Of a stretch of DNA of 64,000 bases, positions 24,600 to 52,371 are shown piece after piece (position 1 is the stretch's first letter; every line of letters starts with the position of its first letter). Source of the stretch: an uncultured Acidobacteriota bacterium (lineage in GTDB: Bacteria > Actinomycetota > Acidimicrobiia > Spongiisociales > ZC4RG35); NCBI GenBank assembly GCA_963711895.1, contig CAVQFU010000007.1:93406-157405 (forward strand), in the 5' to 3' direction. Below the pieces are notes generated by a model. That model saw only the letters and a program-made list of their open reading frames with translations. It was not told the origin of the DNA and ran no database searches. A program made the position numbers and the translations under genes.

Positions 24600-25118
24600 G
24601 TGTTGCCCCAACTCAGGAGGAGTTTGGTGAAGACAAGGTATCTGATCGCCGTGCTGGCCGTGCTCGCCATGGTCGTCTCGGCATGTGATGGAGCAGACGA
24701 CACGACGACAACGGCGGCGGCCGAGCCGACGACCACGGGTGGCGCCGAGACCGAAGGCCCGGCCTCCGCCCCGGCATCATTGACTGCTGATGCACAGGAA
24801 TCGGACGGCACGACGATCGTCATCGCCTCGGTGACCCTGCCTTCCGCCGGGTTCATTGCGATCCATGGCGATGCCGAAGGCGAACCCGGGCCCGTGGTCG
24901 GTCACTCCGATCTCCTGCCCGCTGGAGACTCGACGGATGTCACCGTCACGCTCGACGAACCTTTGGCCGAGTCCGGCACGTTGTGGCCGATGGTCCACAT
25001 CGACATCAACGAAAACGGGGAGTACGAGTTCTTCCCGCCCGACGAGACGATCGACACACCGGGCATGGATGATGCGGGCGGGGTCGCGGTGATACCGGTG
25101 GAGATGACAGTCGGCTGA
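24600..25118 (+). CDS. Hypothetical secreted lipoprotein (start possibly GTG at about 24630)
   Basis: Signal peptide plus lipobox (VSAC), Thr-rich linker, then a ~100-aa beta-rich domain. First gene of a putative copper-related cluster. Confidence 0.5.
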   Translation: MLPQLRRSLVKTRYLIAVLAVLAMVVSACDGADDTTTTAAAEPTTTGGAETEGPASAPASLTADAQESDGTTIVIASVTLPSAGFIAIHGDAEGEPGPVVGHSDLLPAGDSTDVTVTLDEPLAESGTLWPMVHIDINENGEYEFFPPDETIDTPGMDDAGGVAVIPVEMTVG

Positions 25119-46976: not shown

Positions 46977-49676
46977 TCAGGCACCGAACACGACGAAGGA
47001 CGATCGGAGGGCTCTCTCTGCGTCATCGTCGGAATCCCCATACACCAAGGCCTTGGCCAGGGCCACGGGAGTGGGGTCGCCGGCGGCCAGTCCACGGTGA
47101 AGGGTGACCATCAGATCGGTGGCGGCCTCGTCGTCAATCGGTACCACGGGGGCGACGAGGCTGGAGACGCCCATGCCGATCAGGGCCGACGAAAGCCCCA
47201 GAAGCTCGTCGCCGGCCACGACTTTGGTCACGGCGGTGTCACATGAGCTGAGGACCATCACCGACGGGGGCGTCTTGATCTGCTCGAAGTCATAGACGGT
47301 GAGCGGGCCGTCGTGCATCTGAAGCGATGAGAACGACGGGTTGTCGTGGCGAAAAGTGCCGTGGGCAGCGAGATGAGCGACATCGGACCCCTCGATGTCC
47401 CTCAGCACCAGATCGGTCGTGGCATTGCGGCCGGTTCGCCGTCGATGTCTCTCGTAGAGCCGGGCGATCCTCGCGACCTCCTGGACTGCCCCGGGCAGAT
47501 CGGGCCCGGCAACGAGCGAGGCCATCGGAGTGCCTTTCAGCGTCTTCATCCTGGAAGACGCAACTGTCCAGCTCTCGAGAGAGGGCACGACGGTGAGGAT
47601 CCTCCCCGGGTCCAGCGCCGGCCACGGCAGCCGATGCAAGGCCGCCGTCGGCACCACAGTGATCTCCTCGCCATCGCTTGTCAGGGGATCCAGGAGCCAT
47701 TGCCGCAGCAGCTGGAGAGAACTGTCGATGCCGACCGCAGCCGCCTCGAGGGATCGGGGCGAGCCGGCTCCATGGGCGAGTCTGGTCAGCGAGAAGAGAA
47801 GCGACGAGACCTCATTGGCTGTGCGATCGGCCTCGACCAATCGCTTCAAGCCGATGGACCCGCGGTGCACCGACACCGCGTGGATGTCTCCTCCGTACTT
47901 GAAGTAGGAGATCAATCGTCGATCACCCAACCGATCGACGATGTCCTCGCGGCTGTTCGGGGTGGTGGCCCGAGCTGGACCGTAACCACGGAGATGACGG
48001 CTCACCGCCTTGATCTGGGCTTCGATCTTCGACTCCTGCACGATCAGAGAGTGGGTCGAGCCTCCGGTCACCGCCACCTCCCGGATCTCGGCGTTGATCC
48101 TCCGCAGCTCCGAGAGGAGACGGGTCAGCTCGGGGTCCGATGGCGGCCGCACCGCGGCCACCTGGCTGCTCTCGGATCGCCATGACTCCACCGCCTTCAA
48201 GACGCGCCATGGCGAGCCTGAGGCGACCCCTTGCTCGATGGCGAGGACCGCGAGATCCAGACCGTGGGTGGCGGCATGAGAGCGCAGGTCTGCAGCTCCC
48301 AGAGTCAGCCGGTAATCCCTGATCGCCTTGAAACCGGCCTCGATCGCCCTGGTCGATCCAATCGCGTTTCCCTCAGCCTGGCGGAGCAGGGCCTCAGCGT
48401 GCCAGGCCTTGGCCCGATCCAGCGAGGTTCCTCTCCTGCGAGCTCCCGAAGCGGCGCCGAGTTGCCGACGAGCCTCATCGATGGCGCCATCGCGCATGGC
48501 GATCCGACCGGCCAGCAGCCGACAATGCTGGGACTCGGAGATGAGGCCGATCCCGGCCAGGTCGTCGGCGAGGTGGGCTGCCTTCGACGACGTTCCTCCA
48601 TTCGATTTCTTGGTCTCGAATCGGGCCCGAAGCGAGGCGTATTCGGCCAGAAGGCGCCATGTATGCCGATCTTGCTCGGTGAATTCCGAGGCCGCGATTG
48701 ATGCCGCTTCGAGGGCCTCCTCCGGGCGCCGCGCGGCCAGCGCCACTTCGGCAGCGAGGAGACGGGTTTCGGAGAGATCCGTTTTGTTGTCGGTTCTCTC
48801 CAATCCGGAGATGGCGGCTCGCACCGCCTCCTCGGCCTCCGTATAGAGACCAGCGGCGAGGAGCATCTCGGCGCGATTGGCCCAGAGCACCTCGACCATT
48901 CCCGGTGGACGACCAAGTGCCTCATAGGCTGCCTCGGCACGATCGAACCAGGCGAGTGCTGCTGGCACATCACCCCTTCTCCCTTCCAGAAAGCCGAGAT
49001 TGTGGGCGCATCCAGCCACGATCAAGTCTTGTCCGAGCCGTTCCCCGATCTGGCGAGCCATCTCAAGGTCGGAAACTCCGAGGTCAAGTTCACCGCGATA
49101 GCCGTGGAGCACGCCGCGATTGGAGAGGAGTCGGGCTTCGGCCAGGTGGTCGCCGCTCCTTCGGAGGCCGGCCAAAGCCGATCGGTAACGAACCAGTGCC
49201 TCATCCAGCCGGCCGAGGCGTTGCAGGATCAGCCCGATCTGCATTTCGTTGCGAGCCAGGTCAGCTCCAGACAGGCCTCCTATTGCTTGTTCCGCTTCGT
49301 CCAGGGCTCCCTGCGTATCACCCACGTACAGGAGGACTAGAGCGAGACTCGAGCGGATCTGACTGACGCGCCGGGCCAAGCCTGAGTCGTCTGCGATGGA
49401 CAACGCTCTCCGCAGGGCCTCTTCCGCATCTTCGAGGTCGTTGAGCTGTCGCGCGGCGAGACCTGCTGCCCACCAAGCGACCGCCGTAGCTTCGGGATCG
49501 AGGTCTTGACGAGTGAGCAGTGAGCGCGCGTCTTCGCGGGCCCGCTTCGGATGGTCCTGAACCGAATCGACCACGCGCAGGGCGGATTCCAGGTTGGGAA
49601 TCGGAGGCGCATCGATCACGCCTTGGAGACTAGGTTTTGCCGGTTGCGCCTTGGGGCGCAATACGTGGGAGGCCAA
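46977..49676 (-). CDS. TPR-repeat CHAT-domain protease (caspase-like); alternative GTG start at about 49619
   Basis: About 600 aa of TPR repeats, then C-terminal CHAT domain with His-Cys dyad (DVAHLAAHG ... VMVLSSCDTA). Confidence 0.8.
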   Translation of the reverse strand: MASHVLRPKAQPAKPSLQGVIDAPPIPNLESALRVVDSVQDHPKRAREDARSLLTRQDLDPEATAVAWWAAGLAARQLNDLEDAEEALRRALSIADDSGLARRVSQIRSSLALVLLYVGDTQGALDEAEQAIGGLSGADLARNEMQIGLILQRLGRLDEALVRYRSALAGLRRSGDHLAEARLLSNRGVLHGYRGELDLGVSDLEMARQIGERLGQDLIVAGCAHNLGFLEGRRGDVPAALAWFDRAEAAYEALGRPPGMVEVLWANRAEMLLAAGLYTEAEEAVRAAISGLERTDNKTDLSETRLLAAEVALAARRPEEALEAASIAASEFTEQDRHTWRLLAEYASLRARFETKKSNGGTSSKAAHLADDLAGIGLISESQHCRLLAGRIAMRDGAIDEARRQLGAASGARRRGTSLDRAKAWHAEALLRQAEGNAIGSTRAIEAGFKAIRDYRLTLGAADLRSHAATHGLDLAVLAIEQGVASGSPWRVLKAVESWRSESSQVAAVRPPSDPELTRLLSELRRINAEIREVAVTGGSTHSLIVQESKIEAQIKAVSRHLRGYGPARATTPNSREDIVDRLGDRRLISYFKYGGDIHAVSVHRGSIGLKRLVEADRTANEVSSLLFSLTRLAHGAGSPRSLEAAAVGIDSSLQLLRQWLLDPLTSDGEEITVVPTAALHRLPWPALDPGRILTVVPSLESWTVASSRMKTLKGTPMASLVAGPDLPGAVQEVARIARLYERHRRRTGRNATTDLVLRDIEGSDVAHLAAHGTFRHDNPSFSSLQMHDGPLTVYDFEQIKTPPSVMVLSSCDTAVTKVVAGDELLGLSSALIGMGVSSLVAPVVPIDDEAATDLMVTLHRGLAAGDPTPVALAKALVYGDSDDDAERALRSSFVVFGA

Positions 49677-49693
49677 GAGAAAGTGGGGCCGCC

Positions 49694-51067
49694 GTGATCC
49701 CGTTCGACGCCGCGGAGTACGCCGAATCCATCAATGCCCGGTTGTCAGATCGGCGTATCCGCATCTCGCCCGGAGGTGGTTTTGCCTTCCGATCGGACCA
49801 AGTCAATGTTCGGGTGACACACGGAGCCGGGCAACCGGACTTCCCTGGCTCTCTCGTCCATGATGGCCCGCCGCTTTTTCCTGGGGGGGATTGGGACTAC
49901 TTCCTATTCCAGGTAGGTGACGACGAAGATCCCATTGACGCCGTTGCATCCTGGAACTCCGATCCCATCAACACTGCCACACCGGCCTTCCTCAACCGTG
50001 TGTTCTTCGGCGAGCCGGTCTACTTCGGCAACCCGGTCTACTTCGGCAACCCGGTCTACTTCGGCAACCCGGTCTACTTCGGCAACCCGGTCTACTTCGG
50101 CAACCCCTTCGACCGAAACAGCGCTCGGCCGGCGCTACTCCCCCCGCAGTGGGGGCCGGTGACAGATTGCAGTGCACTCGGGAGACAGCCACGAGTCCTG
50201 ATCGTCGACACCGGGCTCGCCACCGAGCTGATCGATGAAGAGCTCAGGGAGCCGGAACATCCGAGACTGAAGGACTGCGTCAGGGTCCATAGTGAGTGGA
50301 CGACAGCCGACAATGTCTCTGCACCTACCTTCGATTGGTCGAGAACCGACGAAGACGAGGTGGATTACGACGGGGATGGATTCCTCGACAGGCAGGCTGG
50401 GCATGGCACGTTCATTGCCGGGATAATCCGGAGCATCGCTCCCAACGCGGAGATCTGGATCCGTGGCGGTATCTCCAGCTTTGGCGACGGTGACGACTAC
50501 GACATCTCGGCGGCCCTCGTTGCCGCTAGCGAGTTGGCGAAAACCACGGACGGCATTCCGATCGACGTCGTAAATCTGTCGTTGGGCTGCTTCACCGAGG
50601 ATGACCAGAGCCCTAGCCCTTCGATCCTCGCCGACACGATCGTCCCGATGCAGGCTCAGGGAACCGTGTTCGTGGCCGCTGCCGGGAACGCGGGTTCCTG
50701 CCACAAGTTCTGGCCGGCTGCACTCGACGGTGTGATCGGAGTAGGCGCCACCTACTGCGGAAAGAGAGCATGGTTCTCCAATTTCGGTGAATGGGTCAAA
50801 GCTTGTGCTCCGGGGGTGGATGTCGTGAGCACCTTTCTGTTCCATGACGGTCCGGCATCGAGCATCGCCGGCGTCGATCCGGATCAATACGAAGGCTGGG
50901 CTGTGTGGTCGGGCACGTCGTTTGCAGCGCCGAAGGTCGCAGCCGAAATCGCCAGACGGATGTGCACCGAGGGGGAGGATGCCCTCGCCGCTGCAGCTGC
51001 GGTATGTCCGGATGACCCGGAGCCGCGTCTCGTTGTGGAAGGTCTGGGAATTCACATAGACGTCTGA
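49694..51067 (+). CDS. S8-family subtilisin-like serine peptidase with N-terminal (PVYFGN)x5 repeat region
   Basis: Asp (VLIVDTGL), His (GHGTFIAGIIRS), Ser (GTSFAAPKVAAEIAR) catalytic motifs. Start placed at GTG (VIPFDAAEY) because the ATG at 49637 would overlap the divergent CHAT gene start. Confidence 0.8.
   Translation: MIPFDAAEYAESINARLSDRRIRISPGGGFAFRSDQVNVRVTHGAGQPDFPGSLVHDGPPLFPGGDWDYFLFQVGDDEDPIDAVASWNSDPINTATPAFLNRVFFGEPVYFGNPVYFGNPVYFGNPVYFGNPVYFGNPFDRNSARPALLPPQWGPVTDCSALGRQPRVLIVDTGLATELIDEELREPEHPRLKDCVRVHSEWTTADNVSAPTFDWSRTDEDEVDYDGDGFLDRQAGHGTFIAGIIRSIAPNAEIWIRGGISSFGDGDDYDISAALVAASELAKTTDGIPIDVVNLSLGCFTEDDQSPSPSILADTIVPMQAQGTVFVAAAGNAGSCHKFWPAALDGVIGVGATYCGKRAWFSNFGEWVKACAPGVDVVSTFLFHDGPASSIAGVDPDQYEGWAVWSGTSFAAPKVAAEIARRMCTEGEDALAAAAAVCPDDPEPRLVVEGLGIHIDV
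50015..50104 (+). repeat. Five perfect 18-bp tandem repeats (ccggtctacttcggcaac) inside the S8 peptidase gene, encoding PVYFGN x5
   Basis: Read directly from sequence at 50015-50104; copies are identical at DNA level. Preceded by a degenerate copy (FFGE) and followed by PF. Confidence 0.85.
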
Positions 51068-51093: not shown

Positions 51094-51732
51094 TTGGCGG
51101 CGGGACGGAGCGTCTTCCTTCATACCATGACGCCCATGGCATCCTTGGCGCGAGCCACCCATGGCGAACTGTTGACGCTGGCTGCCGCCGGTGATCAACC
51201 TGCCTGGAACGAATTGGTCGACCGGTTCAGCCAGATGGTCTGGTCCATCGCCCGCAGTTTCAGACTCGACGACGCCACGGCCAAGGATGTGAGCCAGACG
51301 GTCTGGCTTCGTCTCGTCGAGAACATCCAACGCATCGACGACCCGGAGCGGTTGCCGGGATGGCTCGCCACCACCTGTCGCCGTGAGGCCCTTCGAGTGA
51401 GGGGGATACGCGAGCGCTCGGTTCCGACCGACTTCCAGTACGACATCCCCGACGAATCTCCGTCGCTGGAAGCGATGCTGGTCGAGGACGAGGAGGCCAG
51501 GGAGGTGGTCGCTGCCTTCGCCACCCTCAGCGAAGACTGCCAACAGCTCCTCCGGCTGCTGACGACCGACCCGCCCCTGAGCTACGAAGAGATCTCAGAG
51601 ATCATCGGTCGGCCGATCGGCAGCTTGGGGCCGACCAGATCCAGGTGTCTCGAGCGGCTCAAGGCTGCTTTTTCGGCGCGTATCAGCGGGGCCGGAAACG
51701 ACTCTTTCGACTCAGGAGATGATGCCGAATGA
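51094..51732 (+). CDS. ECF-type sigma-70 family RNA polymerase sigma factor
   Basis: Region 2 (LAAAGDQPAWNELVDRFSQMVWSIARSF...DVSQTVWLRLV) and region 4 HTH (LSYEEISEIIGRPIGSLGPTRSRCLERLK). Confidence 0.8.
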   Translation: MAAGRSVFLHTMTPMASLARATHGELLTLAAAGDQPAWNELVDRFSQMVWSIARSFRLDDATAKDVSQTVWLRLVENIQRIDDPERLPGWLATTCRREALRVRGIRERSVPTDFQYDIPDESPSLEAMLVEDEEAREVVAAFATLSEDCQQLLRLLTTDPPLSYEEISEIIGRPIGSLGPTRSRCLERLKAAFSARISGAGNDSFDSGDDAE

Positions 51733-51920
51733 TGGAGTCGACACCGCAGCACGAAGAGATGTTGGTATCGCTGATCCAGCAAGGACTGGAGGAAGCCGAT
51801 AGACCGCCGGCGGATGTGACCGCTTTCGCCAAGGCGGTTTTTTCGTGGCGTACCATCGACGCTGAATTGGCTTGGGTCTCCTACGACCTTCCGAACGAGG
51901 AGATGAGCCCCGATGAGTGA
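51729..51920 (+). CDS. Small protein, truncated paralog of the downstream gene (possible anti-sigma-like factor)
   Basis: ATGA overlap with sigma factor stop. 63 aa closely similar to the N-terminal 55 aa of 51913..52371 (STPQHEEMLVSLIQQGLEEADRPPADVTAFAKAVFSWRTIDAELAWVSYD vs STSQHEERLLSMLRQGLDESDPAPADVTDFAKVALSWQTIDADLAQLTYD). Confidence 0.45.
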   Translation: MMESTPQHEEMLVSLIQQGLEEADRPPADVTAFAKAVFSWRTIDAELAWVSYDLPNEEMSPDE

Positions 51921-52371
51921 ATCGACCAGCCAGCACGAAGAGAGGCTTCTGTCGATGCTTCGTCAGGGACTCGACGAATCGGACCCGGCGCCGGCCGATG
52001 TGACCGATTTCGCCAAGGTCGCCCTGTCTTGGCAGACCATCGACGCCGACCTGGCCCAGCTCACCTACGACTCGATCGAGGAGTCGAATTCGTCCACGGT
52101 TCGGGGCGTTGCCATTGCCCGCATGCTCGCCTTCGAGGCTGGGGAATGGACGATCGACCTCGAGCACGATCCGGCCACCGGCTACCTGATGGGCCAGATC
52201 GAGCCAGCAGGCGTGATAACCGTCGAACTGCATGTTCTCGACACCGTCCTCGTCGCCGATACGGACGAGCAGGGCCGTTTTTCCTTCGAGGGGATCCAGT
52301 CCGGGCCCTTTGCGCTCGTCATCCGTTTCCAAGGGGACGAAACCGTCAAGACTGAGTGGGTCATCCTCTGA
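51913..52371 (+). CDS. Protein with N-terminal domain shared with the upstream paralog plus C-terminal CarbopepD_reg-like beta-sandwich (possible anti-sigma-like factor)
   Basis: ATGAGTGA overlap with previous ORF. C-terminal VLVADTDEQGRFSFEGIQSGPFALVI resembles the CarbopepD_reg motif. Confidence 0.55.
   Translation: MSESTSQHEERLLSMLRQGLDESDPAPADVTDFAKVALSWQTIDADLAQLTYDSIEESNSSTVRGVAIARMLAFEAGEWTIDLEHDPATGYLMGQIEPAGVITVELHVLDTVLVADTDEQGRFSFEGIQSGPFALVIRFQGDETVKTEWVIL

Follow-up and report, generated by a model that had tools for sequence, protein, structure and literature searches.

What is a short peptide, repeated five times letter for letter, doing in front of the catalytic domain of a bacterial subtilase? 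The question is raised by a 64-kb stretch of contig CAVQFU010000007.1 (hereafter the window, i.e., the whole stretch of DNA that was analysed), in which an open reading frame (ORF) for an S8 family protease (49637-51067, + strand) carries five identical 18-bp units, CCGGTCTACTTCGGCAAC, at 50015-50032, 50033-50050, 50051-50068, 50069-50086, and 50087-50104. The array (50015-50104, +) is in frame and encodes (PVYFGN)5, residues 127-156 when the ORF is numbered, as throughout, from the TTG at 49637. Tandem Repeats Finder (TRF) placed it at 50005-50106, with a period of 18, 5.7 copies, 97% matches, and a score of 190. A first-pass annotation of this DNA had described five perfect in-frame copies that lie, within the S8 peptidase pro-region, just ahead of the catalytic domain and beside a CHAT protease gene; the sequence and TRF bear out the copies, 29 residues separate the end of the array from the strand with the catalytic Asp, and a TPR-CHAT protease gene does adjoin the S8 gene. 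As set out below, the array is real and under selection, and elements of its kind, placed where the pro-part meets the catalytic domain in a family of intracellular subtilases, have apparently not been described before.

Neither chance nor assembly explains the array. It is the sole perfect tandem repeat (at least three copies, period of 9-30) across the 64-kb window, and chance is therefore excluded. The only further TRF match in the window is a weak one at 24703-24754 (period 24, 2.1 copies, 82% matches, score 67). An assembly artefact was rejected because the same five-unit peptide array, written in other synonymous codons, was reproduced on three independent Joint Genome Institute metagenome contigs (L083, L084, and L085; L numbers denote homologous loci).

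These relatives also speak to the age of the array. In L083 to L085 (73-77% identity) there are exactly five PVYFGN units, and in L087 and L088 (52-56% identity) exactly five PVYLGN units, with the copies in both groups differing only synonymously; five full units are thus present in six of the six sequences of the window clade, across 52-100% protein identity. The constant count and the synonymous divergence indicate that the array is old and that both its peptide and its length have been maintained. The same pattern holds across the wider family, in which arrays were called from the DNA, with no peptide criterion applied, and differences were counted from each array's consensus codons. Over 49 arrays, 320 of 356 between-copy differences (90%) were synonymous, versus 24% expected for random changes; these counts are not phylogenetically independent, and the effect is very large. 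Five arrays (L005, L007, L011, L059, and L063) are perfect as peptide while their DNA copies are only 74-85% identical.

This evidence leaves very little room for the view that the array is a young, neutral linker or contingency locus made by slippage, without a sequence-specific role. That view can point to the 100% DNA identity of the five window copies, to sub-blocks of identical copies in relatives, which indicate that homogenisation happens, and to a range of 2 to 12 copies across distant lineages. It is largely refuted by the five copies kept in all six clade sequences down to 52% identity, by the excess of synonymous differences, and by a junction length that stays, at about 53-82 residues for most homologs, within the range of repeat-free ones; the clade-wide count also led us to reject membership among contingency loci. 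The first-pass annotation had read the identical copies as a recent expansion open to slipped-strand length variation, and neither idea survives the comparison with relatives. The identity of the window copies most likely reflects recent homogenisation, either by gene conversion or by a contraction with subsequent re-expansion, and not the birth of the array. Identical-copy sub-blocks within the L083 and L084 arrays indicate that such homogenisation recurs. Between L087/L088 and the window/L083-L085 group, all five units have shifted in concert (PVYLGN versus PVYFGN) while copies within an array differ synonymously, a pattern that points to concerted evolution or to selected co-change of every unit. 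The same annotation had named, as an outcome that would speak against a novel variable element, an invariant copy number together with a common, annotated pro-peptide motif: copy number is indeed invariant among close relatives and this type of array is common in the subfamily, but no annotated or described motif corresponds to it.

S8 homologs are common in Acidimicrobiia and other Actinomycetota, and of 80 homologous genome loci at least 45 have their own array of 5- or 6-residue units at the same junction, which is bounded by an N-terminal alpha+beta domain ending in NHV-x-x-G and by a conserved S-x-A-x-P-A. The 6-residue units include NPQYLG (x6.5), NPSFFG (x7), NPSFVG (x7), NPVYLG (x7), NPGILG (x6.5), NPVTFG (x7.5), NPATFA (x8), and NPVMSG (x8), and the 5-residue units SPMYA (x9), NPFAA (x7), NPLHA (x6), NPLYG (x12), NPFYA (x7), and HPFRG (x6), such that copy number differs between distant lineages, from 2 to 12. 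A single Pro-anchored register fits all 49 arrays: a hydrophobic residue at P4, a variable one at P3, Gly or Ala at P2, Asn or Ser at P1, and then Pro. P1 is Asn in 36 arrays, Ser in 10, His in 2, and Thr in 1; P2 is Gly in 27 and Ala in 18; P3 and P4 are mostly Y, F, L, V, or M, and the 6-residue units add a variable P5. This register matches the subsite logic of subtilases, which have a hydrophobic S4 and a small S2. Scans of Pfam, NCBIfam, and PADLOC gave no annotated family match for the repeat or for the N-terminal domain, and no description of tandem repeats in subtilase pro-regions was found in the searched literature, in line with the initial remark that the repeat was not recognised from described subtilase pro-domains.

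The protein that bears the array is a recognisable subtilase. In European Nucleotide Archive assembly ERZ25039565, the very same protein is called as a gene product of 457 amino acids beginning with the GTG at 49694, which is likely the true start; an exact-sequence cluster look-up for the protein found no entry. Peptidase_S8 (PF00082) matches the ORF at residues 183-440 (E = 9.5e-20; 71.5 bits versus a cut-off of 21.8), which places the protein in that family and the catalytic domain at 50183-50956 (+), as the family alignment does. The catalytic residues Asp191 (50207-50209), His256 (50402-50404), and Ser428 (50918-50920) and the oxyanion Asn351 (50687-50689), all on the + strand, are invariant in an alignment of 96 sequences and lie in the usual motifs (D-T-G, G-H-G-T, and G-T-S-x-A-x-P). 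Among array-bearing homologs, the catalytic His is kept in all that could be scored for motifs, and the Ser motif in nearly all. The N-terminus, VIPFDAAEYAESINARLSDRR, shows no hydrophobic signal-like stretch when read directly from the sequence, without a predictor, and the enzyme is for this reason presumably cytoplasmic.

An AlphaFold2 (AF2) model of the whole protein, built with 96 homologs, reached a mean predicted local distance difference test score (pLDDT) of 82.9 and a predicted TM-score of 0.88. It is organised as an N-terminal alpha+beta domain (about residues 25-124), the array (127-156), the S-A-R-P-A segment, and the catalytic domain. The N-terminal domain, encoded at 49694-50014 (+) according to the gene call and the AF2 models, is propeptide-like and lacks a signal peptide. 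The best Foldseek match of the whole-protein model in the PDB is unautoprocessed pro-subtilisin E (3whi_B), and other pro-forms (2e1p, 2z2z, 3vhq, 4jp8, and 3afg) align over about 450 columns, against about 300 for mature enzymes; the domain is therefore placed as a subtilisin propeptide is. An exhaustive HMMER search with a profile of this domain returned only 61 cluster representatives, all of them N-terminal in proteins of S8 length or in fragments, which makes the domain either narrowly distributed or fast-evolving; these matches gave no hint of its function.

The array itself received a pLDDT below 50 and no strands, a result that bears on the very improbable suggestion that it folds upon itself, as a hexapeptide beta-helix or turn-stack spacer, or cleaves itself non-enzymatically at Asn-Pro, through Asn cyclisation, as the NPTH site of the type III secretion proteins FlhB and YscU does. 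F-G-N-P-V-Y is a loose fit to the hexapeptide pattern [LIV]-G-x-x-[STAV]-x, N-P-x-Y/H is like the turn-forming NPxY and NPTH motifs, and Asn is the P1 residue in 36 of the 49 arrays. Against this, AF2 gives the array no fold, Peptidase_S8 is the only Pfam match on the protein, and Ser, Thr, or His precedes Pro in 13 of the 49 arrays, which rules out Asn cyclisation as a general mechanism. The hexapeptide (LbH) and pentapeptide families were rejected on the same grounds, i.e., no Pfam match and an array without confidently predicted structure.

The position of the array within this anatomy is precise. It lies between the last strand of the N-terminal domain (LNRVFFGE, predicted strand at residues 117-124), in which N120 and V122 are nearly invariant in the 96-sequence alignment, and the conserved S-A-R-P-A segment (50120-50134, +; residues 162-166, motif S-[ST]-A-x-P-A with Pro165 invariant). 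The latter region is well predicted (pLDDT of 86-88 over residues 160-180), stands 26 residues ahead of the catalytic Asp191 when counted from Pro165, and is the putative start of the mature enzyme body. The family motif N-H-V-x-x-G-x resembles the D-H-V-A-H-A-Y end of the propeptide of subtilisin BPN', and S-[ST]-A-x-P-A similarly resembles the A-Q-S-V-P-Y-G start of the mature enzyme; by both resemblances, the array would sit exactly at the classical processing junction. Directly ahead of the array, the end of the last beta-strand and the tail of the N-terminal domain (motif N-H/R-V-x-x-G-x) form a degenerate 'zeroth' unit, RVFFGE (49997-50014, +), and the array closes with a partial unit, Pro-Phe (50105-50110, +), just as arrays of the family typically close with the Pro of one more unit (flanks of 49 arrays). 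The repeated unit copies the tail of the domain (VYFGN-P versus VFFGE-P). We read the array as a six-fold reiteration, one degenerate and five perfect units, of the C-terminal tail of the propeptide-like domain.

The S8 gene belongs to a four-gene module. Divergent from it lies the gene for the TPR-CHAT protease (46977-49619, - strand; Pfam CHAT at 2.5e-31 and TPR_12; gene call of 880 amino acids), in which the His772 and Cys813 motifs are present. Downstream follow an ECF-type (extracytoplasmic function) sigma factor (51127-51732, +), a conserved member of the module, and a 152-residue protein with a weak CarboxypepD_reg-like beta-sandwich (51913-52371, +), the conserved fourth member, for which an anti-sigma role may be supposed. 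Between these two, overlapping the stop of the sigma gene, is a 63-residue ORF (MMESTPQHEEMLVSLIQQGLEEADRPPADVTAFAKAVFSWRTIDAELAW...; 51729-51920, +), a paralogous copy of the first 55 or so residues of the next gene's product; it could be a duplicated minimal anti-sigma-like module. Called mechanically, the S8 and CHAT ORFs begin at TTG codons (49637 and 49676) and overlap there, and the public gene calls (S8 at the GTG at 49694, CHAT at about 49619) leave a divergent intergenic region of about 75 bp (49619-49694) that probably holds both promoters.

Genes for a TPR-CHAT protease, a beta-sandwich protein of about 150 residues, and an ECF sigma factor accompany the S8 gene at most of the genome loci sampled. 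At least three arrangements of the four genes exist, the module spans several orders of Actinomycetota, and it is widespread on the chromosomes of Acidimicrobiia and Streptosporangiales; at L002 its flanks are housekeeping genes (rpoB/rpoC and a Mur ligase). PADLOC gave no significant match for the four proteins, and in the searched literature no module of CHAT, S8, and ECF sigma genes was described, 'CHAT' being mentioned in ECF papers without such a module. The module is thus apparently undescribed. A sister S8 clade, with 5-residue units and often a Cys-rich CxCCxPHP, usually follows a gene for a different partner, an upstream, same-strand protein of about 875 residues with Guanylate_cyc, STAND NTPase (AAA_22/nSTAND1), and TPR_12 domains that replaces the TPR-CHAT/sigma set and makes, with the S8 gene, another conserved module, of two genes (L021, L036, L043, L053, L056, L058, L059, L063, L067-L069, L075, L076, L079, and L082).

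How might a reiterated propeptide tail act? In classical subtilases the propeptide tail occupies the S4-S1 subsites and is the autoprocessing site, and subtilases are not known to cleave before a Pro at P1'. In the window unit, Tyr falls at P4, Phe at P3, Gly at P2, Asn at P1, and Pro at P1'. For the LIPY/F plug of intracellular subtilisins (ISPs), it has been shown experimentally that Pro at P1' moves the scissile bond beyond the reach of the catalytic Ser (PMC6220982). The reading that we favour, tentatively and as a possibility short of even chances, is that the array is a multi-copy, Pro-blocked, cleavage-resistant pseudosubstrate tether that keeps an intracellular zymogen latent. Starting from the observed anatomy, position, conservation of peptide and copy number, and gene module, we infer that the units, as a repeated propeptide tail, would occupy S4-S1 of the S8 active site and that the Pro at P1' would make them uncleavable. 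The tether would keep the active site of the zymogen filled and set the length of the pro/catalytic junction. A partner would then relieve the block, the adjacent TPR-CHAT protease being the obvious candidate, and the freed S8 protease would act in a pathway controlling the co-encoded ECF sigma factor, an output proposed by analogy with Csx29-Csx30-RpoE, CalpL/T/S, and the action of SAVED-CHAT on PCaspase. The position aligned with residue 166 of BPN', at the bottom of the S1 pocket, is bulky here (Phe in the window protein), which fits a shallow S1 able to take Asn or Ser. The residue at this position differs by unit type (e.g., Gln with three Arg-containing units), but as covariation this is only a lead, not separable from shared ancestry in the sample.

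Several points weigh against the pseudosubstrate tether. A single plug would suffice, and the model alone leaves 5-12 identical copies unexplained. Asn is unusual at P1 for subtilases, and a cut may fall at another bond within the unit, e.g., after Tyr or Phe. The array receives no confident structural prediction from AF2. The isolated N-terminal domain has no significant structural match (best Foldseek E of 0.07, generic ferredoxin-like), 26 such domains gave no Pfam match to Inhibitor_I9 (PF05922) even at E <= 10, and the predicted secondary-structure order, helix first, differs from the beta-alpha-beta-beta-alpha-beta of classical I9; the domain is best called propeptide-like, not I9. Finally, Streptosporangiales and several Ilumatobacteraceae carry a single unit or a unique segment of about 45 residues in place of the array, and with so many module members lacking it, the array is not essential to the module.

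The first-pass annotation had offered an inhibitory pro-peptide and a reiterated cleavage site as functions, and we judge both plausible. In the second, which we consider somewhat unlikely, the units are real cleavage sites, cut serially by the S8 enzyme or by TPR-CHAT, so as to form an activation fuse or delay or to release hexapeptides. Identical units, purifying selection, and a fixed copy number are as in multi-copy precursors, and the 5-residue class reads [AG]-[NS]-P-[FMLY], near the classical subtilisin substrate Ala-Ala-Pro-Phe. That register fails in the 6-residue units, including those of the window, where the residue after Pro is small and variable (V/G/A/S/Q/D/N). A second protease stands next door, a CHAT protein with intact His and Cys motifs, and cascades from one protease to another through CHAT do exist, SAVED-CHAT acting on PCaspase (10.1101/2023.06.23.546230). 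Yet the type of unit is independent of the presence of CHAT, and the neighbourhood lacks any conserved gene for a transporter, a cyclase, or another peptide-maturation function. The idea that the array mimics a substrate encoded within the module was rejected, since the unit motif was sought in the CHAT, sigma, and 152-residue proteins and no copy was found.

The two kinds of partner bring in a further reading, which we regard as unlikely: the array would be a docking ligand laid along the TPR groove of the partner, one unit per one or two TPRs, and would tether or sense the zymogen, with copy number matching the solenoid and unit sequence co-evolving with it. The TPR region is the only part that the TPR-CHAT and Guanylate_cyc-STAND NTPase-TPR_12 partners share. 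Identity within arrays, copy number fixed by clade, and lineage-specific units are what a repeat-on-repeat interaction predicts, and the units are Pro/Gly-rich and predicted to be disordered, like many TPR ligands. However, no sensor repeat is commoner in such proteins than the TPR, which makes a shared one weak evidence, and array-less homologs retain the same TPR-CHAT partner. Unit type also tracks the S8 lineage and not the partner protein. S8 proteins of the [ST]P[MV]Y[AG] clade pair either with TPR-CHAT (L024 and L039) or with the cyclase-STAND-TPR protein (L021, L036, and L069), the [ST]PMY[AG] unit being kept with both, and a comparison of the TPRs of these partners of same-unit S8 proteins detected no similarity.

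A related and likewise improbable proposal makes the arrays the information carriers of a cytoplasmic protease-peptide-TPR signalling axis, of which two versions can be conceived. In one, the S8 zymogen may free n identical penta- or hexapeptides that are read by the TPRs of the CHAT or cyclase-STAND partner, much as RRNPP receptors read peptides of 5-7 residues. In the other, the intact array may lie along the TPR solenoid, its copy number and unit serving as a lineage-specific 'key' that gates the ECF sigma factor. If either version is true, Actinomycetota would use a new kind of logic for signalling within the cell.

Several other features of the junction were observed among the homologs. 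Cys-rich clusters (e.g., GCQCGCEPACGPWH and GGCSCGCGCGG) stand just after or between arrays at L013, L019, L047, L054, L057, L058, L064, L071, L074, L080, and L082, and just before them at L021, L024, L036, L050, L056, L059, L066, L067, and L069, e.g., as CxCCxPHP; these clusters suggest that the junction also contains an element sensitive to metal or redox state. In the window protein this region has only one Cys (VTDCSALG). Tandem pairs of S8 paralogs occur at L002 (6571-7947 and 8001-9416) and also at L006, L022, L026, and L029; of the L002 pair, one protein has an (HPNYIG)x4 array and the other a degenerate remnant only (NPVYTGNPGAYLANP). Two separate arrays of one unit, split by a spacer, are found at L040, L043, L058, and L076. 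The spacer is Cys-rich in L058, and in L043 the peptide after one array runs into X residues, which we attribute to masking, or to unresolved sequence, at the repeat.

Proteases of broad specificity in the cytoplasm have to be kept inactive, and only a few ways of achieving this are understood. Here an actinobacterial family of intracellular subtilases has conserved tandem peptides of 5-6 residues at the propeptide/enzyme junction, with lineage-specific units and a stable copy number. In the S8 arrays the pattern of selection is unusual for a short tandem repeat; in-frame arrays that resemble microsatellites are for the most part linkers that drift or phase-variable switches. The strong selection on arrays in the actinobacterial relatives suggests that proteases can be kept latent in a way not yet described, which we rate as a variation on the established principle of latency through a propeptide or pseudosubstrate.

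Among known systems, the classical subtilisin propeptide, an intramolecular chaperone and inhibitor (MEROPS I9; 3WHI, and pro-Tk-subtilisin 2E1P), is similar in placing an N-terminal alpha+beta domain before the S8 domain. It differs in that the window protein has no signal peptide, no I9 sequence match, and no significant fold match for the isolated domain, and in that the tail is separated from the mature N-terminal segment by 5-12 further copies of itself in tandem, with a Pro after each, an arrangement not known from classical propeptides. With the ISPs of Bacillus and Planococcus (LIPY/F plug; PDB 2X8J and 6F9M), some chains of which match the catalytic domain in sequence, the window protein shares a presumably cytoplasmic location, i.e., the lack of a secretion signal expected of an ISP, and ISPs too are kept latent by N-terminal sequence. 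The short extension of an ISP is not what the window protein has: ISPs carry about 18 residues with one [LVI]-[IFLV]-P-[YFH] and no pro-domain, whereas its N-terminal region comprises about 165 residues, with a domain of about 105 residues plus the array, and V-Y-F-G-N-P puts Gly/Ala-Asn/Ser, not two hydrophobic residues, before Pro. The genomic context of the window S8 gene differs as well.

Multi-copy precursors, such as yeast alpha-factor with Kex2 and the cyanobactin precursor PatE with PatA/PatG, likewise combine tandem identical peptides, selection at the peptide level, and an S8 protease, but here the repeats lie in the protease's own pro-region, with no secretion signal and no conserved maturation or export genes. 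Assignment to the PatA/PatG cyanobactin proteases (TIGR03895; 32.6 bits versus a cut-off of 421) was rejected, as was assignment to the mycosins of type VII secretion (TIGR03921; 75.8 bits versus a cut-off of 278.75).

The gene set, in turn, recalls the Csx29-Csx30-RpoE, CalpL-CalpT-CalpS, and SAVED-CHAT/PCaspase systems of CRISPR and of cyclic-oligonucleotide-based antiphage signalling (CBASS), as it joins a TPR-CHAT protease to an ECF sigma factor and small accessory proteins. Unlike in those systems, no cas, SAVED, or cyclic-oligonucleotide genes were identified in the module, in which no systematic search for cas genes was made. Defence islands have recently yielded sigma switches under protease control, and the module can be viewed as their counterpart on the chromosome, outside CRISPR, with a sister version that swaps CHAT and sigma for a cyclase-STAND-TPR protein. 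It also departs from those switches in its second protease, an S8 subtilase with a repeat-bearing pro-region, whose presence within the module suggests, by analogy, a proteolytic cascade.

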